Shown here piece after piece: positions 4,869 through 16,230 of a stretch of DNA of 64,000 bases (within the stretch, counting starts at the first letter, position 1; each line of letters opens with the position of its first letter). The translations under genes were made by a program, and so were the position numbers. The notes under the pieces are model-generated. The model ran no database searches. It was given only the letters and a program-made list of their open reading frames with translations, and was not told the origin of the DNA. The stretch lies in contig CAZRYF010000001.1 of assembly GCA_964604165.1 (NCBI GenBank), positions 55,481 to 119,480 of the forward strand, written 5' to 3'. The DNA is from an uncultured Enterobacterales bacterium (GTDB lineage: Bacteria > Myxococcota_A > UBA796 > CAJQPC01).

Positions 4869-5657
4869 GTGCCCGCCCCGGATCCAAAGCGCCCCTCCAG
4901 GAAGCGGAGGCGGCAGTCGTCTCGGCCTCCTGAGTTGTTGTTCCACGGGACCTGCCTGTCTCAAGTACGGCGGGCCAGGGAGCTCGGCGAGCTTGTTCGT
5001 GACAACGGCCAGGACCTGTACCTCTCCACCTCGGAGTCCCAGGCTTGGAAGGTCGCCCACCGCTCGGCCCAGGAACCGGTGGTGTTGGTGGTGGAAGCTC
5101 GAAGAGCCGTGCGGGATGGGGTCTCTTTTCGGCGGGGGAGGGGAGGTCTGTTCTTGACGGGGGCTGTGCCGTCTCGACATGTGCTGAACCTGGGGGATGG
5201 TTTTGGGGAGCAGTTCTCAGCCGGTGGTTTTCTGGTCCGGGAGCGGGACGGTCAGGCGCAAGTGGCGCTGGTGAGCTGTCGTAGGGGGCGGCGGGACTCC
5301 TGGGAGATCGCCAAAGGAAAGCTCGAGGACGGGGAGACGCCACAGGAGAGCGCCAAGCGGGAGCTTCAGGAAGAAATGGGGTTTACCTCCGGTCTCGAGA
5401 TCCTTCATGACCTCGGTGTTGTGCACTATGCATTTCACGTTCCAGGGACGGGACCCCGCCTCAAACGACTTCATGTCTACGTGCTCCAGGCAGATCCTGA
5501 GCCAGAGACATTTGAACCCAGGGAGGAAGAGGGGATACTGGAGGTTCGCTGGTTCCCTGTGGAGGAGGCCCGGCGCCTTGTGCCCCACCCCTCTCTTCGG
5601 CCGGTCCTGAACCGATTGGCCAAATTGTACAGAAAGGATGCAACAAATGGCAGCTGA
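4869..5657 (+). CDS. Fusion protein: KptA/Tpt1-like C-terminal (NAD-binding, ART-fold) lobe plus Nudix hydrolase
   Basis: aa 20-105 (PPELLFHGT...LYLSTSESQAWKVAHR...PVVLVVEA...GLFLTGAVPSRHVL) line up with the E. coli KptA C-lobe as I remember it. Canonical Nudix box GKLEDGETPQESAKRELQEEMG at 5316-5381. GTG start. Confidence 0.65.
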   Translation: MPAPDPKRPSRKRRRQSSRPPELLFHGTCLSQVRRARELGELVRDNGQDLYLSTSESQAWKVAHRSAQEPVVLVVEARRAVRDGVSFRRGRGGLFLTGAVPSRHVLNLGDGFGEQFSAGGFLVRERDGQAQVALVSCRRGRRDSWEIAKGKLEDGETPQESAKRELQEEMGFTSGLEILHDLGVVHYAFHVPGTGPRLKRLHVYVLQADPEPETFEPREEEGILEVRWFPVEEARRLVPHPSLRPVLNRLAKLYRKDATNGS

Positions 5658-5949: not shown

Positions 5950-6030
5950 CCCGGTTCAGCCAGGATGGCTCAACCTCCAATGTGTCCGTGTTACGGTGGG
6001 AGTGATGCGAAACTGAAACACGGGTGAAAC

Positions 6031-7440
6031 ATGGACGCCCACAGGCAATTCCAGAGGTGGATACGCCAGATTGGGCCCGTGGAGGCCTTCACAGGCCTGG
6101 TGGCCCTCCTGGAGTCACTGGATGAAGACGGTGCAGCGGTCTTCGCGGTCGATGCGGGTCGGAACATCCAGTTCTGGAGTGAGGGGGCACAGCGCCTTCT
6201 TGGATTTCCGGCGGAGGACGTGGTGGGGCAACACTGTCTCAAGTCCAACCGGTGTGAGAACTGCATGGCCGGGTGCGGGATCACGACCCACGGTCAGATC
6301 AGTGACGTGCCCCTGAAGTACTTTGATTCCCACGGCAATGAGGTGTTGATCGAGAAGTCTGGACGGGCTTTCTTTGATGCGGCCGGAGATTTCGCAGGGG
6401 GAATTGAGATTCTGCGACCCAGGAGGGAGGGGAGGAAGGCGAAGGGGGAGCGTCTCCCGCGTCCATCCCAGAGGGATGATCTCCTCGCTGGGTTTGAGGT
6501 GGAGCAGTTTCACGGACTGGTGACGGGAAACCCGGAAATGAGGAGGGTGTTCGCGCTCATCCGAAATGTGGCTGAGACCCAAGCGACCGTCCTGGTGCGG
6601 GGGGAGAGCGGAACCGGAAAGGAGCTGGTAGCGCGAGCTCTGCACGAGGAGAGCCAGCGACGGAACAAGCCATTTCTGGCGGTGAATTGCGCGGCCTTGA
6701 GCGAGAACCTGTTGGAGAGCGAGCTCTTTGGACACGTGAAGGGGGCCTTCACCGGCGCGGTTGCGAACCGAAAGGGGCTCTTTGAGCAAGCGGACGGGGG
6801 GACCCTCTTTTTAGACGAGGTGGCAGAGCTGCACTTGGACCTGCAGGCCAAGTTGCTTCGGGTTTTGCAGGAGCAGGTCTTCTCTCCCGTGGGCTCTACC
6901 CGAACGGTGAAGGTGGATGTGCGCATCATCTCGGCGACGCATCAACCCCTTCGACTTCGCGCGGCAGAGGGGACGTTTCGCGAAGACCTCATGTACCGCC
7001 TGAGGGTCGTGCCCCTCTACATTCCGGCCCTTCGAGAGCGGCGCCTGGACGTGGAGATCCTGCTTCGCCATTTTGTGCAGCGAAACAACGAACGGGGTCC
7101 GCGCATGGTGAGAGACATCCACCCGGATGCGCTCCGCGTTCTCCTGGATCACCGCTGGCCCGGAAATGTTCGGGAGGTGATCAACGTCGTCCAATATGCC
7201 TTTGCGGTGGGCCGTGCTCCGACGCTTGGGCTCTCCGACTTACCCCCTGAATTCCGGGAGGCGGATTCATCCTTGCGGGTTCCAATGCCCGGAGTCATGC
7301 AACACAGTCCGGAACAAAGCGAGAAGAGGGAAATGGAGTTGGCTCTTTCCCAAACAGGCGGTCACATCGGCCAAGCGGCGGAACGGCTGGGCATGAGTCG
7401 TCCCACCTTCTGGCGAAAGCGGAAGAAGTACGGCTTTTAA
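6031..7440 (+). CDS. Sigma-54-dependent transcriptional activator (bEBP): PAS-like sensor with a Cys4 cluster, AAA+ domain and Fis-type HTH
   Basis: Walker [22 protein letters not shown] loop (KGAFTGA), C-terminal HTH ([25 protein letters not shown]). N-terminal PAS-like domain carries C-x5-C-x2-C-x3-C at 6235-6276. Confidence 0.9.
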
Positions 7441-8095: not shown

Positions 8096-9268
8096 CTACC
8101 ACCGCTCCCACCACTGCCTGACATAGACAAGTCCCACGACCATGTGTCCGCCCTGTGCAAGGAGGAGGCCGTTGTTGTGGGGTGCGGCGGAGGTGTGGGT
8201 GTTGTGGATTGCGACCTGCAGTTCGACATAGTGGCCTTGGAAGTCCTCCAGGAGGCCTTCGGGCAGGGTGAAGCTTCCATCCGGTGTGACGAGGCAGCGA
8301 ACTGCGGTGTCGTCCTGGGTGGAGAGGAGACGAATGACGCCGTAGTCGGCCGAGCTGGCAGCGTAGCGAACCACAAAGTTGTCCACCCCGACGCGGGGGA
8401 CGGCTTGCTCGTAGACAGGCGGACTGATCACGGCCAGGCTGGCGGGCGTCTCAAAGGCCCCCGGGATCGCAAGAGGGGGTGCTGTGGCGCCTCCGGAGAA
8501 CTGGAGGTCATGCTCAACACCCGCGGTCCAGGCCCCGGTGCCCAGGAGGGAGTGGTAATGGTCGGTTCTGGACTCCCAGGAGACCGCTTCCGCTGATCCG
8601 TCGCGGCTCACCACCACCTCCGACCCGACCGATTGGCCGTTCATCTGGACCCAGGGCTCCTCATGGGTCCACCCGTCGTCTCGCACACAGGCGTCCATGC
8701 TCGTGCCCCAAAAGGGGGGCAGGTCCCGCGAGGTGGGCTCAAACCAGGCCATTCGGGCCGCGACACCGCTCTCTGCATCCTGCCAGTGGGAGGTGCGTGC
8801 CATGTCAATGAAGGTCCAACTCGCCAGCGCGGTCTGCAACCCGGTGGCGTCCTCCCAGTAGGTGAAGGGCGAGTCGGGCTGAAGGCTGTGAGCACTCCCA
8901 ACCAAGCGAATGTTGGCCTGCCCCGGGGCCCCGGAAGGAGGTGTCAGGACCTCCAGGCGCGTCGCCTCCAACGAGACGATCTCCGCGAGGGCCCCGCCGA
9001 TCCACACCTCCACCACCTGATCGAGTCCCTCCCCCTGGAAGAGGAGGCGTGTTCCGCCAAGGGTCGATCCGTGGAGGGGGGCGATGTCGTCCAGAGCAAA
9101 GGGCTCCTCGGCCGTGTCCCCTGAATCGCCCGAATCCTGCCAGCCGTGGAAGGAAGGAGAAGGGGCAATTGCCTGGTCTGGGCGCTCCTCGTCGACGGGA
9201 GTGGAGCCGATTTCCAGGACAGCAGAGGGTGCGCAGGCGGCGAGGAGGAGGACGGGAAGGAATCGCAT
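8096..9268 (-). CDS. Lipoprotein with an IPT/TIG domain
   Basis: Start at MRFLPVLLLAAC (lipobox LLAAC), with GGAG 7 nt upstream. IPT/TIG-like segment IAPLHGSTLGGTRLLFQGEGL...VWIGGALAEIVSLEATRLEVLTPP. Confidence 0.65.
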   Translation of the reverse strand: MRFLPVLLLAACAPSAVLEIGSTPVDEERPDQAIAPSPSFHGWQDSGDSGDTAEEPFALDDIAPLHGSTLGGTRLLFQGEGLDQVVEVWIGGALAEIVSLEATRLEVLTPPSGAPGQANIRLVGSAHSLQPDSPFTYWEDATGLQTALASWTFIDMARTSHWQDAESGVAARMAWFEPTSRDLPPFWGTSMDACVRDDGWTHEEPWVQMNGQSVGSEVVVSRDGSAEAVSWESRTDHYHSLLGTGAWTAGVEHDLQFSGGATAPPLAIPGAFETPASLAVISPPVYEQAVPRVGVDNFVVRYAASSADYGVIRLLSTQDDTAVRCLVTPDGSFTLPEGLLEDFQGHYVELQVAIHNTHTSAAPHNNGLLLAQGGHMVVGLVYVRQWWERW

Positions 9269-9308
9269 CGGCAGGCTCCAGGTTTGAAGGGCGGGTGAGT
9301 GGGGCTTA

Positions 9309-9324
9309 CGCAGGATTCGTGCCA
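9309..9324 (-). promoter_or_regulatory. Candidate sigma-54 (-24/-12) promoter for the 9268 lipoprotein operon
   Basis: Minus strand reads TGGCACGAATCCTGCG. GG-N10-GC spacing is correct. About 40 nt upstream of the ATG at 9268. The -12 element is CTGC rather than TTGC. Confidence 0.5.
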
Positions 9325-9433
9325 AGTGTGGGGTGACCATTGGATGCCGCAAGGCCCGCATTCTCCGCAGGCTTGTTTCAATTGGCGAAACGCGTGAAAC
9401 GCGGGATGAAATGCCCGTCGCCCCTTGTGGGAA

Positions 9434-10996
9434 CTACCGCGTGGCCTCCACCACATAGGTGGCGAGATCGGCAATCTCCTCGGCGGTCAGGGTCTCTTGA
9501 AAGGAGGGCATGACTCCGACGCCGTGGGTCACGGCCCTCTCGACCTGATCCTGGCTCGGCTTCAGGGTGTCCAGGTTGGGCCCCACGGCCCCCAAAGCCT
9601 CGGCCTCAGAGAGGGTGTGGCAGGAGCTGCAAGCAGGGGTGGACACCTCGGAAAAGACCGTGCGGCCCCGCTCTCCGGCTTCCGAGAGCTGGACCTCCTT
9701 TCTCGGGGGTGCGAGGACGGTCTCGGCCTGGCCCTCTTGTGGCCCGGGGCGCTGGGCGAGGGATGCCACCACCTCTAGTTCGAGGATCGCATCGCGCCAG
9801 GCGTTGTGGCTGTATCCACGCTCATTCTCTTGACGGGCCTCGGGTTGGACCTCTCCGGCCTTGTCTGTGGCCCGGGACACAATCGAGTGGCGGCCCGGCT
9901 GCAGGCTGGCGGAGAACTGAAAGGTGCGCCAGGCGTTGGAGCCCATGTCCGGGCCGACCCAGTCGGCCTTCTGCCAGCTCGTCCCCTGGTCCAGGGAGAC
10001 CTCCACCCGCTCGACGCCTCTCTCTCCTGAGAAGGCCACCCCGTGAAAGTGAACCTGTCCGGCCTGAACGGGCTCGCCGTCAGCCCCAGGGCCGTTGACC
10101 CAGGACTTGACCGGCATTCGCCACATGGAAGGTTGGGTGGGGTCACCCTTCTCACCGAGAGGCCGAATCCGGTATCCCCGCTGTTGGATCTTCGCGCCGG
10201 ATTGATGCTCGGTGAAAGCCAGCGTCTTGATGTACTTCACCTGGTTGCACCCAAAATACCCCGGCACCACCAGCCGCAGCGGACCCCCGTGGGTCAGGGG
10301 GATCGGCTGACCGTTCATCTCCCAGGCGAGCAGGCAGTCCTTGAGTCCCTTTTCCAGCGGGATCGAGCGCTCCACCACCACGGAGGCCGCGTCGACCCCT
10401 TCGGGGATCTCCTCTCCCCCTGTGGCGGTGACAAACCGGGCGCCCGGCGAGGCCCCCCCCAGGTGTGCAGCCACCTTGGAGAGCGCCACCCCTGTCCAAT
10501 TCACACAGCCAGCGGCCCCAAGGGACCAGGGTGACCCGGACGGGCTGTGGTCGAAGAAGCGCCGACCGTTTCCGGAACACTGAAGGACGGATGTGATCGT
10601 GTCTCGCCCCAGAGATGCGAGATCCGCAAGCGACAGGGTGCCGGCGGTGCCGGTGCCTTGCACCTGCAGGCGCCATCGCTCCGGGTGATCCACAATGGAG
10701 CGGTCTGGACGGGGGAGGTTGTTTCGAACGAACAACAGGCTCGCGGGGGTCAGCGAAGCGGACGCCAGCTTCGAGCGGCGTGTCTCCAGGGCCAGAGGGC
10801 GCTCATTGTGGACATGAAAGTCGGAGCGCTTCAGTCCATCCGGGAGAGGGGCCACAGCCCCGGTCCCCGGGGTGGGGTTGGGTTTCAACGGGGCCGCGGG
10901 CGGTGGCTTGAGACGGCAGGCGCCCAGAAGTGCAGCGCCGCTGCCCAGGGAGAGGGCCGTCAGAAACTGGCGCCGGCTCTTGGGTTTGGAAGGCAT
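9434..10996 (-). CDS. Sulfite dehydrogenase/oxidase family molybdoenzyme (SorA-like) fused to a C-terminal class I cytochrome c domain; Tat-exported
   Basis: Twin-arginine leader SRRQFLTAL. Moco-binding Cys motif VLQCSGNGRRFF. Dimerisation domain. Heme motif CSSCH at 9617-9631 with a distal Met candidate (GVMPSF). Confidence 0.8.
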   Translation of the reverse strand: MPSKPKSRRQFLTALSLGSGAALLGACRLKPPPAAPLKPNPTPGTGAVAPLPDGLKRSDFHVHNERPLALETRRSKLASASLTPASLLFVRNNLPRPDRSIVDHPERWRLQVQGTGTAGTLSLADLASLGRDTITSVLQCSGNGRRFFDHSPSGSPWSLGAAGCVNWTGVALSKVAAHLGGASPGARFVTATGGEEIPEGVDAASVVVERSIPLEKGLKDCLLAWEMNGQPIPLTHGGPLRLVVPGYFGCNQVKYIKTLAFTEHQSGAKIQQRGYRIRPLGEKGDPTQPSMWRMPVKSWVNGPGADGEPVQAGQVHFHGVAFSGERGVERVEVSLDQGTSWQKADWVGPDMGSNAWRTFQFSASLQPGRHSIVSRATDKAGEVQPEARQENERGYSHNAWRDAILELEVVASLAQRPGPQEGQAETVLAPPRKEVQLSEAGERGRTVFSEVSTPACSSCHTLSEAEALGAVGPNLDTLKPSQDQVERAVTHGVGVMPSFQETLTAEEIADLATYVVEATR

Positions 10997-11005
10997 GCGC
11001 GGCTC

Positions 11006-12034
11006 CTAAGCGCCCATCAATACCCGGGTCACCACGAAGCCGCCGCCTACCAGCCAGGCAAAGAGGGACAGGGCCAGGTAGATCGGGGCCATTCCCACGC
11101 CTTTGAACTTGCTTGCGTTGGTCTCGATGCCCAGGGCGGTCATGGCCATGGTGAGGAGAAAGGTGTCAAACACGTTGACCCCTTGCACCAGGGAATCGGG
11201 CAACAGAGCCAGACTGTTGAAGCCTGCCACCGCCACGAAACCCACGGCAAACCAGGGAATGACCACGGGGGGGCGCTTGCCTCCCTCGGTGGCGGCACCC
11301 CGGGACAGGGCCCAGCCGATCACGATCAGCGCAGGTGCAAGGAGCATGACCCGGGTCATCTTGACGATGACCGAGGTCTGGGCAGCCTGGGCTCCGACTG
11401 CTTCCCCCGCGCCCACCACATGGGCGACCTCGTGAACCGTGGCGCCGATGTAGATGCCAAAGACGTTCTCCGGCATGGGGATCCAGCCCATGCGGTAGAC
11501 GAACGGATAGGCGAACATCGCCAGGGTGCCAAAGAGAACAACGGTCCCCACGGCCACTGCCGTCTTGTGGGCTTCTGCCTTGACCACCGGCTCAGTGGCC
11601 ACCACGGCCGCCGCGCCGCAGATGGCGGCCCCAGCGGAGGTCATGATCGCGGTCTCCTTGTCCATTCTCAGCACCTTGATGCCGAGAAAGGTCCCCAGGG
11701 CCAGGGTGGTGGAGAGCATGATCACATCCACGATGAAGCCGTTCAGTCCCACGGCGGCGATCTGTGAAAACGTGATGCGAAAGCCGTAGAGGATGATGGC
11801 CAGGCGAAGAATGATCTTGGCGGCATAGAGGATGCCGGAGGACCAGTCCGTCGGGATTTTTTGCCTGGCGGTGTTGCCCAGCACCGCGCCAAGGAGAATG
11901 CCGATGATCAGCGGGCTGATGCGCAGGGAGAGCATCGCTGGCGAGCCTGCGAGCCAGGTGGCGGCGGCCGACAGGAGCGCCACCAGAGTGAGGCCTTCAA
12001 AGAACCCGGGCGATTGGTAGGGGAAGTACTTCAT
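11006..12034 (-). CDS. YeiH/UPF0324 family membrane protein (putative sulfate/sulfite exporter)
   Basis: Start at MKYFPYQSPGFFEGL, overlapping the upstream stop. Polytopic membrane protein with YeiH-like segments (ISPLIIGILLG, FGIYIGATVHEVAHVVGAG). Confidence 0.7.
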   Translation of the reverse strand: MKYFPYQSPGFFEGLTLVALLSAAATWLAGSPAMLSLRISPLIIGILLGAVLGNTARQKIPTDWSSGILYAAKIILRLAIILYGFRITFSQIAAVGLNGFIVDVIMLSTTLALGTFLGIKVLRMDKETAIMTSAGAAICGAAAVVATEPVVKAEAHKTAVAVGTVVLFGTLAMFAYPFVYRMGWIPMPENVFGIYIGATVHEVAHVVGAGEAVGAQAAQTSVIVKMTRVMLLAPALIVIGWALSRGAATEGGKRPPVVIPWFAVGFVAVAGFNSLALLPDSLVQGVNVFDTFLLTMAMTALGIETNASKFKGVGMAPIYLALSLFAWLVGGGFVVTRVLMGA

Positions 12035-12480
12035 GAGCCGAGCCCCCCGCCCGTCAATCTCTTGCTCAAGGCGGCGTTCAACACCTGATAGAGGAACATT
12101 CCAAGGAGCAGGGTGCCCACAAAGGTGACGGCGGCGCCGCTCCCGGTGATGCAGGACACAATCCCCGGACCGGGGCAGAATCCACCCAAGCCCCATCCCA
12201 CGCCAAACAGCCCGGCGCCGAACACCAGCCGCTTGTCGATGTTTGTGCGCGTGGGAATGGAGAAGGCGTCTTCGCACAAGGGGTTGTCCCGGCAGGTGAC
12301 CCATTTGAAGGTCCCCAGGTGGGCCCCGATGGCCCCGACCATGACAAAGGCCAGGGAGGGGTCCCAGGAGCCGGCAGCGTTGAGAAAGCCGATCACCTTG
12401 TTGGCGTCGGTCATTCCCGACACGCCGAGTCCGATGGCGAAGAGCGTTCCCGAGAGGAACGCCGCGGTGGATGACTTCAC
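12031..12480 (-). CDS. YeeE/YedE (DUF395) sulfur-compound transporter, second half-size subunit
   Basis: GTG start at 12480 in a GTGA overlap with the upstream stop. 4-TM protein with GGFCPGPG motif. Paired with the adjacent half-size YeeE/YedE gene. Confidence 0.7.
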   Translation of the reverse strand: MKSSTAAFLSGTLFAIGLGVSGMTDANKVIGFLNAAGSWDPSLAFVMVGAIGAHLGTFKWVTCRDNPLCEDAFSIPTRTNIDKRLVFGAGLFGVGWGLGGFCPGPGIVSCITGSGAAVTFVGTLLLGMFLYQVLNAALSKRLTGGGLGS

Positions 12481-12905
12481 AGGACACCTCCAGCGAAGAT
12501 CTGGATGCCCGTGGCGGTGGCGAAACCAGTGGCCATGAAGGTCAGTGTCGCCACCAGGGAACGAATGGAGAGGCGGGAAAGTCCGCAGACGCCGTGCCCG
12601 CTCGTGCAACCAGATCCCATTCGAACCCCAACGCCCACAAACAGACCCGCGAGGGCAACAGACGAAAGCCCGCGACTCGCTGGAGCGGAGATGGACTGGG
12701 GAAGGGCGAGCATGAGGGCGAGACCGCCTACCAGGAGCCCCCCCACAAAGGCGGCCCTCCAAGCCACCTCGCCAGAGGAGGGCGTGAGCAGACCGCCGAC
12801 GATGCCGCTGATGCCGGCGATTCGTCCCAGGGACAGCAGGAGAAAGGAGGCGGAGAGGCCAATGAGGGCACCCCCCAGGACCGCCAGGATGATGGATTGC
12901 AACAT
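12477..12905 (-). CDS. YeeE/YedE (DUF395) sulfur-compound transporter, first half-size subunit
   Basis: 142-aa 4-TM protein with the conserved Cys loop GSGCTSGHGVCG. Confidence 0.75.
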   Translation of the reverse strand: MLQSIILAVLGGALIGLSASFLLLSLGRIAGISGIVGGLLTPSSGEVAWRAAFVGGLLVGGLALMLALPQSISAPASRGLSSVALAGLFVGVGVRMGSGCTSGHGVCGLSRLSIRSLVATLTFMATGFATATGIQIFAGGVL

Positions 12906-12908
12906 AAT

Positions 12909-13634
12909 TCAGGCTCCGGCCACGGGGTTCTCGGGGAGGGACCTTCCACAGGCCATGTTGGCCGGTAGCGCTTCCTTGATCTTGTTTGGGTAGGCCAGGT
13001 TGAGGTTGTCCATGATCTCCACAAACTGCTTCTTGCTGTTGGCGAGCTTGAGTCGGGGATTGAAGGTCTTCTCCTCCCGGACGGTGGAAACCGCGTGGCC
13101 CTTGTAGTCATGGCCTGGGTAGACGAGGGTGTCATCCGGGAGGCTGTAGATTTCGTCGTGAACCGAGTCGTACAAGGTGGAAGCGCTCCCCTGTTGAAAG
13201 TCGGTCCGTCCGCAGCCTCGAACAAAAAGCGCATCCCCCGAAAACACGTAGGTGCCTCCGTTGTCTCGCACGACGACCGACATGCAGGAGCTGGTGTGGC
13301 CGGGGGTGTGACGGAGCTCCGCGGTGAGTGTGCCAAACAAGAGTACCTCCCTGTGTTCCGCTCTTCGGTCGGCGCAGTCGACGCCGGCTGCGCTGCTCAA
13401 GACAGACTGGGCCCCCAAACGCTCCCGCAGCACCCCCGATCCCGTGATGTGGTCCGCGTGGACATGGGTGTCAATGAGGTAGAGCAGTGTCAGCCCGAGC
13501 TCTCTCACCAGGCGGGAGTCTCGTTCTACCTGCTCCAACACCGGGTCGATCAAGATGGCCTCCTTCGTGGACGCGTCTGCGAGCAAGTAGGTGTAGGTGG
13601 AGGTTTCTTTGTCGAAGAGCTGACGGAAAATCAT
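12909..13634 (-). CDS. Persulfide dioxygenase (ETHE1-type metallo-beta-lactamase fold)
   Basis: Start at MIFRQLFDKETSTYTYLL (GGAG 6 nt upstream). MBL motif THVHADH. The ETHE1-like N-terminus F(R/K)QLFD..S.TYTYLL is typical of PDOs. Confidence 0.8.
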   Translation of the reverse strand: MIFRQLFDKETSTYTYLLADASTKEAILIDPVLEQVERDSRLVRELGLTLLYLIDTHVHADHITGSGVLRERLGAQSVLSSAAGVDCADRRAEHREVLLFGTLTAELRHTPGHTSSCMSVVVRDNGGTYVFSGDALFVRGCGRTDFQQGSASTLYDSVHDEIYSLPDDTLVYPGHDYKGHAVSTVREEKTFNPRLKLANSKKQFVEIMDNLNLAYPNKIKEALPANMACGRSLPENPVAGA

Positions 13635-13726
13635 GAAGGGCTCCGTTGGGGAAGGGTCACTGTCCTGTGGTGGTGAAGGTCCTGCACTCCAGGGGAGGCC
13701 AGGTGCCGACTTGCAGCCAGCCAATA

Positions 13727-13742
13727 AGCAATTGCCGTGCCA
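13727..13742 (-). promoter_or_regulatory. Sigma-54 promoter for the sulfur-oxidation operon
   Basis: Minus strand reads TGGCACGGCAATTGCT, a perfect TGGCAC-N5-TTGC. About 90 nt upstream of the PDO start codon. Confidence 0.75.
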
Positions 13743-13840
13743 ATTCCGAGAACCACACCGCAATTATCGTGATTATAGGGGGTTGGAGAGAAGGGATCGC
13801 CCCCTTGGCGTGGTCATGGTGTCCAGGTCGTGCATTCCTG

Positions 13841-13888
13841 TGTTTCAATCCAGCAATCCAGATAGACCAGGAATGAAACATTGAAACA
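13841..13888. promoter_or_regulatory. Candidate enhancer (UAS) between divergent sigma-54 promoters
   Basis: Inverted repeat TGTTTCAAT (13841-13849) / ATTGAAACA (13880-13888), plus a tandem TGAAACA at 13874-13880. AT-rich island about 100-150 nt from both -24 elements. Confidence 0.4.
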
Positions 13889-13999
13889 AGGTGAATGCGG
13901 GGGGTGGATGCATCCGGCGAGGCAAAACTGCGCCTGAATACAGTGGGTTGGGGCCGAAATGTCGGTGGTCTGGTGGCGGCCCAGGGGGTGGACGTGAAA

Positions 14000-14015
14000 T
14001 GGCACAACTGTTGCT
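14000..14015 (+). promoter_or_regulatory. Sigma-54 promoter for the 14043 lipoprotein gene
   Basis: TGGCACAACTGTTGCT, a perfect TGGCAC-N5-TTGC. 28 nt upstream of the start codon, followed by AAGGAG SD and the ATG at 14043. Confidence 0.75.
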
Positions 14016-14042
14016 AATGGGTGTATCGCAAAGGAGATCTGC

Positions 14043-15725
14043 ATGCCTTTTCCCTCCATTCGGTCATCCGCTCTTCTCACGGGGTTTTGCCTGGCCCCTG
14101 TCGCCTGCGGGAGCGAGGAGAGCCCCTCCCTCCCGGAGGCTTCCTACCTGGAGGTCACCGCGCCGCTTCCCGGCGCGGTGATCCAGACACCAACGGTTGG
14201 GTTGGGGGGCCTACTTGAGGGTCTCATGTCCCTGACGCTCGCAGGCGAGTCGACCCACGCAAAGCCGGAGGCAGGGGCGTTCAGGTTCTCAGTGCCTGTA
14301 GCGCCCGGCATTCGCACGTTCAGGGTGGAAGGGCGCGGTCAAGATGGAACACCCCACTTGGATGTTCGCTCCGTTCTTGCCGGTGAATTTGAACATGCAG
14401 ACCGCGTGGTAGAGGAAGCAGCGGGTGTTTTCCTGGGGCGAGACGGTTTGCAGAGCGTGGGAGAGGCCCTGGTGGAGGAGCTGACCCCGTCCCACTTGTC
14501 TGACCTCCTGCGGGACGAGAACCCCCTCTTCCGGGAATTCGTCCAGGTAGAGGGGTGGGGGGTCGATTTGGCTTTGGCGGTGGAAGCGGTGGACTTCTCC
14601 GACGCTCGGGCGTGGGTGCAGCCCCGGGAAGGAACCCTGGAGGTCTCACTGGATCTGTCGTTCCTTTCGGCCCAGGTGCAGATCCAGGGGGGGATCTTCG
14701 GCTGGATTGAGCATGACATGAACGGGGTGCTCACGGCGGATCGGCTCCAAATCCAGGTCTCGGTGTCGCCCCTGGCCTCCGGGGGTGGCATTGCCCTCGT
14801 GTCCCAGGGAGGGGAGGTCTCCCTGGAAGGGTTTGGTTTTGACATGGAAGGGGTACCCGATTTCCTTGAGGATCTTCTGGCGGCAGGGGGGGGGCTGCGG
14901 AAGGAGCTGGAGGAGGAGATGTATGCTCAGATTCAGTCCACCTTGTTGCCTCGACTCGAGGCACATCTTGGAGAGCTTGAGTTCGCCCGGGAGGTGCCCG
15001 TTCTGGGTACAGAACTGGAAGTGGACGTGGCCATTGGGCGGGTGGAGGTAAGCCGTGACGGACTTACCCTCGTGACCGAAATCAGCGTTCGCGGGCAACA
15101 TGGCGAGAGTTTGGGTCCGGGCTCTCTTGCGGGACCCTCCCCCACGCTGCAAGGAGCGGGTTCAGACCAGGGGGAGCTGCTCCTGTCCGACAACTTCCTG
15201 AACCTCGGCCTCTACCAGCTCTGGCAAGCGGGGGCGCTGGACACCAGCTTCTCCACGAGCGAGGGCACACTGGACCCACTTCTGCCCCTGTTCTTTGACA
15301 CCCGGGAGGCAGCGATTCGACTGGTGGAGCGTCTTCCTCCTGTGGTGGTGGAGCGAGACGGAGAGCTGACCCTTTCCTTTGGAGAGCTGGAAATGGAGCT
15401 GCTGACCCCGGGGGCCCCCTTGGGGGAGAGAGCCCTGGTGATCTTGCAGGGGGAGGGCGCAGTGGAGGTTGCCCTGGCGGACGGCACGCTCACACTCTCC
15501 GCAGCCGAGCCAGAGGTGACCGTCTTTGTGCGGGAAAGTGACTGGGGCCTGTCCGCAGCGGAGGCCACCGCGGCCGTGAAGGAGGTGCTTCCCATGGACC
15601 TGCTGGTGGAACGGTTTCGGACCCTGCAGATTCCGGTGCCAACGCTGCCGGTGTTGGAGGGGCGTGCGCTCACCCTTGTCCGCGGCGAAGGCGGCCACCA
15701 GAGCGCGGTGGTGTTCGGAAACTGA
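14043..15725 (+). CDS. Lipoprotein of unknown function (sigma-54-dependent)
   Basis: 560-aa ORF. Signal peptide with lipobox LAPVAC. Strong SD. No recognised catalytic motif. Confidence 0.7.
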   Translation: MPFPSIRSSALLTGFCLAPVACGSEESPSLPEASYLEVTAPLPGAVIQTPTVGLGGLLEGLMSLTLAGESTHAKPEAGAFRFSVPVAPGIRTFRVEGRGQDGTPHLDVRSVLAGEFEHADRVVEEAAGVFLGRDGLQSVGEALVEELTPSHLSDLLRDENPLFREFVQVEGWGVDLALAVEAVDFSDARAWVQPREGTLEVSLDLSFLSAQVQIQGGIFGWIEHDMNGVLTADRLQIQVSVSPLASGGGIALVSQGGEVSLEGFGFDMEGVPDFLEDLLAAGGGLRKELEEEMYAQIQSTLLPRLEAHLGELEFAREVPVLGTELEVDVAIGRVEVSRDGLTLVTEISVRGQHGESLGPGSLAGPSPTLQGAGSDQGELLLSDNFLNLGLYQLWQAGALDTSFSTSEGTLDPLLPLFFDTREAAIRLVERLPPVVVERDGELTLSFGELEMELLTPGAPLGERALVILQGEGAVEVALADGTLTLSAAEPEVTVFVRESDWGLSAAEATAAVKEVLPMDLLVERFRTLQIPVPTLPVLEGRALTLVRGEGGHQSAVVFGN

Positions 15726-15747
15726 CGTTCGCTTGCCGCGTCGGCCC

Positions 15748-16230
15748 TCAGCGAGCCATCTCGTAGCCGGCAGCCTCCCACTGGAGGTAGCCGTCCGGCA
15801 GATCGTGGACGTTGCAGAAGCCGGCGCTGACCAAATCGGAGGCGGCGATATCACTCATGGGGCCCGTCTTGCAGTAAAGCACCACCTTGGTGCCCAGGTC
15901 TCCAATGGCCGCCTTGAGGTTCTCGGTCTGGAGGTAGGAGATGTGGTCGTCCGTACCCGCGATGTCAGGCCCATGGGGGACATGAACGTTGATCAGGAGA
16001 AAGTCGGTCTCCCCGGCCTCTTCCTGGGCGAGGAGCTCGTCCAGCTCCGCGAGACCAAGGACATTGACCTGGGCATCGACCTCTGCGCAGTCGATCACCT
16101 CGGGGCCCTCCGTCGTGGGCTCACCGGTTTCGCTGTTCCCGGAGTCCACTGTGTCGCTGTCGCCGACACAGGACACGAGGAACACAAGCACAAGGGGCAG
16201 GGAGGTCTTGGACATGGTGGTTTCCTTCAT
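15748..16230 (-). CDS. Exported rhodanese-domain lipoprotein (sulfurtransferase)
   Basis: Lipobox FLVSC. Acidic linker. Rhodanese active-site loop YCKTGPMS. The start at 16230 forms an ATGA overlap with the upstream stop. An alternative ATG at 16215 has an AAGGAAA SD. Confidence 0.7.
   Translation of the reverse strand: MKETTMSKTSLPLVLVFLVSCVGDSDTVDSGNSETGEPTTEGPEVIDCAEVDAQVNVLGLAELDELLAQEEAGETDFLLINVHVPHGPDIAGTDDHISYLQTENLKAAIGDLGTKVVLYCKTGPMSDIAASDLVSAGFCNVHDLPDGYLQWEAAGYEMAR

Follow-up and report, generated by a model that had tools for sequence, protein, structure and literature searches.

Among described systems, the locus analyzed here is most closely matched by the FisR regulons reported from Cupriavidus pinatubonensis JMP134 (Li et al., 2017, Mol Microbiol 105:373) and from Acinetobacter baumannii. 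To our knowledge, only two genera have so far been used to study how FisR-type proteins control the detoxification of sulfide.

In A. baumannii, sulfide has been shown experimentally to induce the persulfide dioxygenase (PDO) operon through FisR (Walsh et al., 2020, PMC7315123). The regulatory cysteines of FisR are reported not to be generally conserved (PMC12754779, PMC7315123). A further system that bears on the locus is the orp1/orp2 pair of Desulfovibrio vulgaris Hildenborough, where one enhancer-binding protein, OrpR, drives two divergent sigma-54 operons (PMC3897727, PMC8359166).

We analyzed a 64 kb stretch of DNA (C1:55481-119480, called the window throughout) from a 4.66 Mb assembly (63.7% GC) that contains a single rpoN gene (Sigma54_DBD match, 215.6 bits) and approximately 15 genes for enhancer-binding proteins (bEBPs; 15 strong Sigma54_activat matches). 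The window shares with the FisR regulon a sigma-54 activator with a sensor, AAA+ and Fis-type HTH layout, as well as a PDO-containing operon that includes a sulfite/sulfate-type exporter and that has a -24/-12 promoter upstream of PDO. With the Acinetobacter FisR loci it also shares TGAAACA/TGTTTCA boxes and a similar HTH region. However, the activator gene of the window is not the divergent neighbor of the PDO operon but lies at its distal end, at a distance of about 6.2 kb, and the divergent slot is occupied by a second sigma-54 promoter and a BPI-like lipoprotein gene. Unlike the published FisR regulons, the operon in the window has no SQR gene and codes for a SorT-SorU sulfite dehydrogenase and a YeiH fusion, and unlike Acinetobacter FisR, which lacks them, the bEBP of the window carries four cysteines in a PAS-like sensor. 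The resemblance to orp1/orp2-OrpR is of a different kind, consisting of an outward-facing pair of sigma-54 promoters within one intergenic region and a bEBP with a Cys-bearing PAS sensor. The operator in that system is GGGCGYRTTTTGCGCCC whereas the window has TGAAACA boxes, two functional IHF sites are present there whereas none is recognizable in the window, and the regulated genes are unrelated, with OrpR sensing redox via a [4Fe-4S] cluster.

Overall, the comparison supports the assignment of this system to the known kind of FisR-type sigma-54 regulon, in a new layout where the activator gene stands apart, one bidirectional enhancer is shared by two promoters and new members have joined. 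Specifically, we hold with good confidence that the region 13635-14042 is a FisR-type bidirectional sigma-54 control region in which a bEBP at shared boxes would open both promoters, and that a FisR-like sensor probably induces the PDO operon jointly with the gene for a lipid-binding-type lipoprotein.

Two predicted sigma-54 promoters with exact consensus face outward from one intergenic region

The ATG of the PDO gene (13634) and the ATG of a probable lipoprotein gene (14043) are separated by a 408 bp intergenic region (13635-14042) that contains two exact matches to the -24/-12 motif TGGCAC-N5-TTGCW. The first of these, P_pdo, is located at 13742..13727 on the minus strand and reads TGGCACGGCAATTGCT, the reverse complement of the plus strand sequence AGCAATTGCCGTGCCA at 13727-13742; including its flanks it reads TTGGCACGGCAATTGCTT. 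The second, P_lipo (TGGCACAACTGTTGCT), is located at 14000..14015 on the plus strand. In both sites the conserved GG and GC dinucleotides are exactly 10 bp apart. P_pdo is positioned approximately 93 nt upstream of the PDO ATG, which is preceded by GGAG and which is also the residue from which PDO homologues align, while P_lipo ends 27 nt before the lipoprotein ATG with the SD sequence AAGGAG (14031-14036) in between. From these positions, transcription is predicted to start near 13716 for P_pdo, giving a 5'UTR of about 82 nt, and near 14026 for P_lipo. An earlier note on this DNA had reported two exact TGGCAC-N5-TTGCT sites with GG-N10-GC spacing, both followed by start codons with SD sequences, and had taken them for two divergent sigma-54 promoters; the sequence on both strands bears out the sites and the start codons, and the statistics below argue for the promoter assignment.

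Besides P_pdo and P_lipo, the 64 kb window contains no exact match to TGGCAC-N5-TTGCW. Chance alone predicts 0.09 such matches, and a count of two was reached in one of 100 shuffles. They account for two of the 19 exact matches in the 4.66 Mb genome (9.3 Mb when both strands are counted). When the same motif was counted genome-wide with other spacings there were 4 matches with N4, 4 with N6 and 6 with N7, so that the N5 form is enriched 3- to 5-fold. This excess over the wrong spacings indicates that the sigma-54 motif is under selection in this genome. We estimate the chance of a second exact consensus on the opposite strand within the 408 bp gap at approximately 1e-3. Motif matches so far beyond chance suggest that both sites are sigma-54 promoters, and TGGCAC-N5-YTGCT is also present at the equivalent place upstream of orthologous PDO genes in relatives. 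A scan of 13500-16000 detected no sigma-70-like promoter and no intrinsic terminator. We also considered a 17-nt direct repeat (13770-13786 and 13935-13951, 82% identity) as a paired architectural site, which was set aside as not significant because by our estimate about 0.3 such pairs would occur by chance in 408 bp.

The persulfide dioxygenase operon and its candidate activator

As in FisR regulons, the gene downstream of the sigma-54 promoter P_pdo codes for a persulfide dioxygenase, in this case with an ETHE1/PDO-type metallo-beta-lactamase fold (12909..13634, minus strand). It is the first gene of a tightly packed operon whose remaining part spans 9434..12905 on the minus strand and comprises a YeeE/YedE-like half transporter (12905..12477), a YeeE-like/YeiH fusion (12487..11006) and a SorT-SorU fused sulfite dehydrogenase with cytochrome c (10996..9434). 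The operon may plausibly constitute a route from persulfide to sulfite and on to sulfate, with export.

The candidate cognate activator is a bEBP encoded at 6031..7440 on the plus strand, with a PAS-like sensor, an AAA+ domain and a Fis-type HTH_8 domain. Its Pfam matches are PAS, Sigma54_activat, AAA_lid_14 and HTH_8, and GAFTGA is present in the translation. This gene is convergent with the PDO operon and approximately 6.2 kb from the PDO start and the boxes described below, and there are about 14 other bEBPs in the genome. The C-terminal HTH recognition region is similar to that of Acinetobacter FisR, which fits an operator common to both. When Paraburkholderia, Roseateles, Sorangium and Acinetobacter genomes were searched with the sensor domain, only marginal PAS matches were returned, and no orthologue of this domain was obtained from the Burkholderiales genomes searched. 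When the bEBP was compared by tblastn with plasmids and chromids, the best full-length matches were unrelated bEBPs in acetoin or fatty-acid contexts and were discarded.

The sensor contains the cysteine motif C69-x5-C75-x2-C78-x3-C82 inside the PAS-like domain, with C69, C75 and C82 invariant among six aligned orthologues. This motif raises an alternative that concerns the signal only, namely that the activator senses redox or oxygen through a metal or an Fe-S cluster held by the four PAS cysteines, in the manner of OrpR/NreB. OrpR holds its [4Fe-4S] cluster via three PAS cysteines, C52, C61 and C65 (PMC8359166), and the sensing chemistry within the FisR family is itself unsettled since A. 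baumannii FisR lacks the regulatory cysteines (PMC7315123). The context of the activator points elsewhere, however, as the genes to be regulated are those of persulfide and sulfite oxidation, the orthologues are tightly linked to PDO, and TGAAACA shows no relation to the OrpR operator GGGCGYRTTTTGCGCCC. In addition, Cupriavidus FisR reportedly senses sulfane sulfur with three R-domain cysteines (as cited in PMC12754779). We therefore consider metal or Fe-S sensing possible yet unlikely, and we favor sulfide-derived sulfane sulfur as the signal that would induce this regulon, by analogy with FisR.

TGAAACA boxes lie between the promoters and at the start codon of the candidate activator

Three perfect 7-mer boxes are present between P_pdo and P_lipo at 13841..13888, specifically TGTTTCA at 13841-13847, TGAAACA at 13874-13880 and TGAAACA at 13882-13888, and form a shared candidate UAS flanked by the outward-facing promoter pair. 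Within it, TGTTTCAAT at 13841-13849 and ATTGAAACA at 13880-13888 are the two arms, 30 bp apart, of a perfect 9-bp inverted repeat. The boxes are 104-144 bp from the GG element of P_pdo and 116-158 bp from that of P_lipo. The earlier note had placed a repeat midway between the promoters, at a distance typical of a UAS, and both parts of that description hold, the repeat being a perfect inverted one that is joined by an extra TGAAACA at 13874-13880.

A second array is found at the start of the bEBP gene (6009..6031, plus strand), where GAAAC (6009-6013) is followed by TGAAACA at 6014-6020 and again at 6025-6031. The sequence runs GCGAAAC-TGAAACA-CGGG-TGAAACA-TG, so that the last box overlaps the bEBP ATG at 6031. 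The same GAAAC-ATG juxtaposition is present at the bEBP start in two relatives (L104 and L108), and boxes are located 0-20 nt from the activator start codon in five other loci (L036, L005, L032, L072 and L055). From this placement we infer that the boxes at 6009-6031 may be an autoregulatory site.

Such arrangements are rare in the genome. At least two TGAAACA sequences within 80 bp occur in only three places in 4.66 Mb, two of which are the shared UAS and the 5' end of the bEBP gene. Relaxing the requirement to at least three GAAAC/GTTTC in 50 bp yields 25 clusters across the genome, and a single 8 kb gene cluster has three of them in its intergenic gaps (6009-6030, 9375-9396 and 13842-13887). 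When approximately 1,016 relaxed sigma-54-like sites were surveyed across the genome, P_pdo and P_lipo were the only ones with three TGAAAC boxes within 300 bp upstream.

The region between the UAS and P_pdo also includes a stretch at 13761-13778 that is locally 60% AT in a 64% GC genome. Its position, the need of the divergent orp promoters for IHF (PMC3897727) and the five HU/IHF-family proteins encoded in the genome would fit the proposal that IHF must bind this stretch for the UAS and P_pdo to be looped together. The earlier note had suggested such a site; the AT-rich stretch exists as described but its identity as an IHF site is not supported, as even the best match within it departs from the IHF consensus WATCAANNNNTTR at 3 of 9 specified positions. 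A pattern search and a best-match scan both failed to locate this consensus with one mismatch or less anywhere in the intergenic region, the best match (2 mismatches) overlaps the boxes, and there is no equivalent AT-rich stretch on the P_lipo side. With only poor consensus matches at hand, we rejected 13761-13778 as an IHF site for want of support and regard IHF-dependent looping at P_pdo as doubtful.

The boxes accompany orthologous activators across phyla

A nucleotide search of 40 relatives with the 408 bp intergenic region matched only the genome of origin. As this DNA is unconserved in relatives, the comparison was made through proteins. The nearest relatives of the PDO are from Myxococcota MAGs with at most 63% identity, and the same set contains Acinetobacter and Burkholderiales PDOs. 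Orthologues of the bEBP show 51-60% identity over the full length, a span that takes in the N-terminal PAS-like domain and its cysteine motif. A bEBP orthologue adjoins PDO in six of 80 PDO loci (L036, L047, L055, L080, L051 and L005) and is divergent from PDO in all of these but L080. In four loci from the same family or order as the window (L104, L107, L108 and L110), a bEBP orthologue with 53-60% identity is likewise divergent from a PDO-YeeE operon.

The intergenic regions between orthologue and PDO contain two to six TGAAACA/TGTTTCA boxes in nearly all cases, the exception being L047. A TGGCAC-N5-YTGCW promoter facing PDO was found in six of ten loci, and there the boxes are 40-160 bp upstream of the promoter. 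Three Acinetobacter loci (L032, L061 and L072) also have TGAAACA/TGTTTCA boxes upstream of a -24/-12 promoter. When 47 boxes from 14 regions were gathered by the core GAAAC only, a consensus of T-GAAAC-A emerged, with the flanking T present in 41 of 47 and the flanking A in 37 of 47, and with positions further out unconserved. These flanks are conserved in genomes that range from 38% to 73% GC. From one locus to another the boxes differ in number, spacing and orientation.

We next asked how the boxes are distributed over all 80 PDO loci, defining a cluster as at least three boxes and a neighboring bEBP as one within 4 kb. Clusters are present in 10 of the 16 loci that have a nearby bEBP and in none of the 64 that do not (Fisher's exact P = 4.9e-9). 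This indicates that the boxes go with the activator and not with PDO as such. Two loci (L010 and L041) have boxes and a sigma-54 promoter yet no bEBP within 4 kb. Taken at the level of sequence comparison, these results support the view that the TGAAACA/TGTTTCA boxes are the operator of a FisR-type enhancer-binding protein. The searchable literature, which does not include the original 2017 FisR paper, yielded no published FisR operator sequence, and a literature search for the TGAAACA motif together with sigma-54 turned up no paper that contains the motif among those listed.

The same distribution bears on whether the sigma-54 promoters, though real, are served by boxes that some other bEBP or a non-bEBP factor occupies in place of the 6031-7440 protein. 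Such an arrangement is conceivable given that the 6031-7440 gene is non-adjacent and convergent and that the genome encodes about 15 bEBPs. Weighing against it, the boxes track the orthologous bEBP across phyla with their clusters absent from PDO loci that lack a bEBP, they abut the start codon of the 6031-7440 gene as they do in its orthologues, and nowhere else in the genome is a sigma-54-like site preceded by such a cluster. We accordingly see little chance that another regulator is responsible and retain the 6031-7440 bEBP as the likely activator. The earlier note had named this protein as the probable activator in a sulfide context and had proposed one shared UAS for both promoters; both proposals are strengthened by orthologues that adjoin PDO genes with the same boxes and by three-box clusters that are unique to the two promoters.

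Compared with the four loci of its own family or order, the window has the same boxes, the same type of TGGCAC-N5-YTGCT promoter for PDO and a box that abuts the bEBP start. However, in those loci the UAS and the activator 5' end are in a single intergenic region whereas they are 7.8 kb apart in the window, and a sigma-54-driven lipoprotein replaces the activator as divergent partner. What sets this genome apart is the layout, with the activator detached and its usual divergent slot taken by the gene for a BPI/LBP-like lipoprotein under predicted sigma-54 control.

A probable BPI/LBP-like lipoprotein is the single gene behind P_lipo

P_lipo is followed by a single gene (14043..15725, plus strand) that codes for a 560-aa probable lipoprotein with an invariant Cys22, and the next gene converges on it. 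The protein has no match in Pfam or NCBIfam. An AlphaFold model built from 10 sequences (mean pLDDT 81, pTM 0.77) matches BPI, LBP and CETP over approximately 470 columns with an E value of 3e-21 and a TM-score of 0.66 when normalised to BPI. Based on these matches the modeled protein has a two-barrel BPI/LBP/CETP-like (TULIP) module, of the type that binds hydrophobic ligands, with an Ig-like domain ahead of it at the N-terminus.

Elsewhere, in relatives and in metagenomes, the lipoprotein homologues have neither linked sulfur genes nor boxes, and an upstream sigma-54-like site was observed in only one of the approximately 17 examined (L117, TGGCACGCTTGTTGCG at -75). The attachment of the lipoprotein to a FisR-type enhancer thus appears to be specific to the lineage of the window, and for the same reason the evidence for P_lipo consists of its perfect consensus and its placement. 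This evidence nonetheless leaves very little room for the reading that only P_pdo works and that 14000-14015 is a fortuitous or silent site with the lipoprotein expressed from some other, non-consensus promoter, since, even though the homologues lack boxes and E. coli reportedly has sites that sigma-54 binds without productive outcome (PMC4591121), an exact 11/11 consensus is as scarce as the counts above show, this one faces the gene just ahead of its SD and ATG, and the flanking sequence scanned offers no sigma-70-like promoter.

A third box array precedes a second lipoprotein gene

A third array of boxes is located on the minus strand at 9374..9412, comprising TGTTTCA (9374-9380), GAAAC (9387-9391), TGAAAC (9395-9400) and a degenerate TGAAAT (9407-9412). 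It is 54-76 bp upstream of the GG of a weaker sigma-54 candidate (TGGCACGAATCCTGCG, 9324..9309, minus strand) that has 2 mismatches in the -12 element. This candidate is approximately 38 nt upstream of an ATG at 9271 that begins an IPT/TIG lipoprotein starting MRFLPVLLLAAC. Matches with 2 mismatches to the sigma-54 motif are at chance level (32 found versus 31 expected), so it is the context that speaks for this candidate promoter. The ATG at 9271 opens a clean lipoprotein signal, and the longer annotated ORF start at 9361 is therefore probably wrong.

A model for bidirectional control

The motifs, their rarity and placement and the conservation of the boxes alongside the bEBP across taxa suggest a sequence of events; what follows on box binding, on looping, on activation in both directions, on self-regulation and on the inducing signal is our deduction. 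Sigma-54 holoenzyme would form closed complexes at P_pdo on the minus strand and at P_lipo on the plus strand. The three boxes at 13841-13888 would be occupied by a FisR-like enhancer-binding protein, for which the 6031-7440 product is the most likely candidate; it would oligomerise there, and DNA looping together with ATP hydrolysis would then open both promoters, which are 104-158 bp to either side. The outcome would be co-induction of the PDO/YeeE/YeiH/SorT-SorU operon and the periplasmic BPI/LBP-like lipoprotein. The same bEBP probably also binds the boxes at its own start codon, which would result in negative autoregulation, and probably the 9374-9412 array as well, from which it would act on the third, weaker promoter of the IPT/TIG lipoprotein.

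Significance for FisR-type regulation

The T-GAAAC-A boxes, which are kept from Acinetobacter to Myxococcota, provide a concrete and testable operator for a FisR-type regulator. The window also represents a natural case in which one enhancer apparently serves two divergent sigma-54 promoters and in which the activator gene has moved while keeping boxes of its own. The regulon has unexpected members, specifically the BPI/LBP-like lipoprotein, the IPT/TIG lipoprotein and the fused SorT-SorU sulfite dehydrogenase.

A bolder version, which we put forward as a long shot, is that a FisR-type sensor acting from one enhancer fires both the persulfide/sulfite oxidation operon and a periplasmic TULIP lipoprotein that either carries zero-valent sulfur (S8 or long polysulfanes) in its hydrophobic tunnel or else repairs or shields envelope lipids when sulfide is a stress, with T-GAAAC-A as the general FisR operator. 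If true, sulfur metabolism would for the first time be tied functionally to the TULIP lipid-transfer proteins of bacteria, and T-GAAAC-A would be a general operator, undescribed in the searchable literature, that predicts regulons across Pseudomonadota and Myxococcota. The box motif is directly usable for the prediction of FisR regulons in genomes and metagenomes.

Repeats, activator and PDO loci of other organisms

The TGAAACA/TGTTTCA boxes (core GAAAC) that lie between the two back-to-back sigma-54 promoters are accompanied by further repeats. Between boxes, at 13846-13861, an 8-mer occurs in tandem (CAATCCAG-CAATCCAG), and a second inverted repeat of 8 bp (CATTCCTG / CAGGAATG, 13833-13875) is interleaved with the inverted repeat formed by the boxes. 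Neither the tandem 8-mer nor this second inverted repeat was found in the other loci.

The candidate FisR-like activator (bEBP, 6031-7440, plus strand) carries a cysteine motif, C69-x5-C75-x2-C78-x3-C82, within its PAS-like sensor (residues 69-82, 6235-6276). In six orthologues, drawn from Myxococcota, Methylococcaceae and Methylotenera, C69, C75 and C82 do not vary; Acinetobacter FisR lacks the motif. Its cysteines may either sense through thiol persulfidation or hold an Fe-S or metal centre.

Two persulfide dioxygenase (PDO) loci of other organisms, L010 (3890-3970) and L041 (3870-3975), both contain GAAAC boxes together with a perfect TGGCAC-N5-TTGCT promoter and have no bEBP gene within 4 kb, so the FisR-like activator is detached in other organisms too. 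At a Methylococcaceae locus, L047 (3800-3950), a bEBP orthologue (54% identical) is divergent to PDO, and the region between the two genes lacks the boxes; it holds instead a long element that resembles a palindrome (gtaggtgcgaatttattcgc ... gcgaataaattcgcacctac) and may be an inserted repeat.

Other sigma-54 motifs

For the IPT/TIG protein (8096-9361), the longest ORF begins at 9361. The ATG at 9271 is probably the true start; it has a lipobox (MRFLPVLLLAAC) and a GGAG 7 nt upstream, and the sigma-54 candidate at 9324..9309 lies upstream of it. Elsewhere in the same genome, a single strand carries three exact TGGCAC-N5-TTGCA motifs arranged in tandem within 140 bp (C23:28194-28331), upstream of a 265-aa ORF; together they constitute a candidate triple sigma-54 promoter, an unusual arrangement.

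The lipoprotein family

The 560-aa lipoprotein (14043-15725) has no Pfam or NCBIfam matches. Its structure model is confident (pLDDT 81) and matches human BPI (Foldseek E 3e-21), with a predicted fold of an N-terminal Ig-like domain followed by a two-barrel BPI/LBP/CETP-like (TULIP) region. A homologue in another MAG (L117, 28% identity) has TGGCACGCTTGTTGCG 75 nt upstream, at about 4926-4941, and no TGAAACA boxes; some members of the family may be under sigma-54 control with other activators. That a putative sulfur-responsive enhancer would control a bacterial TULIP protein is unexpected.
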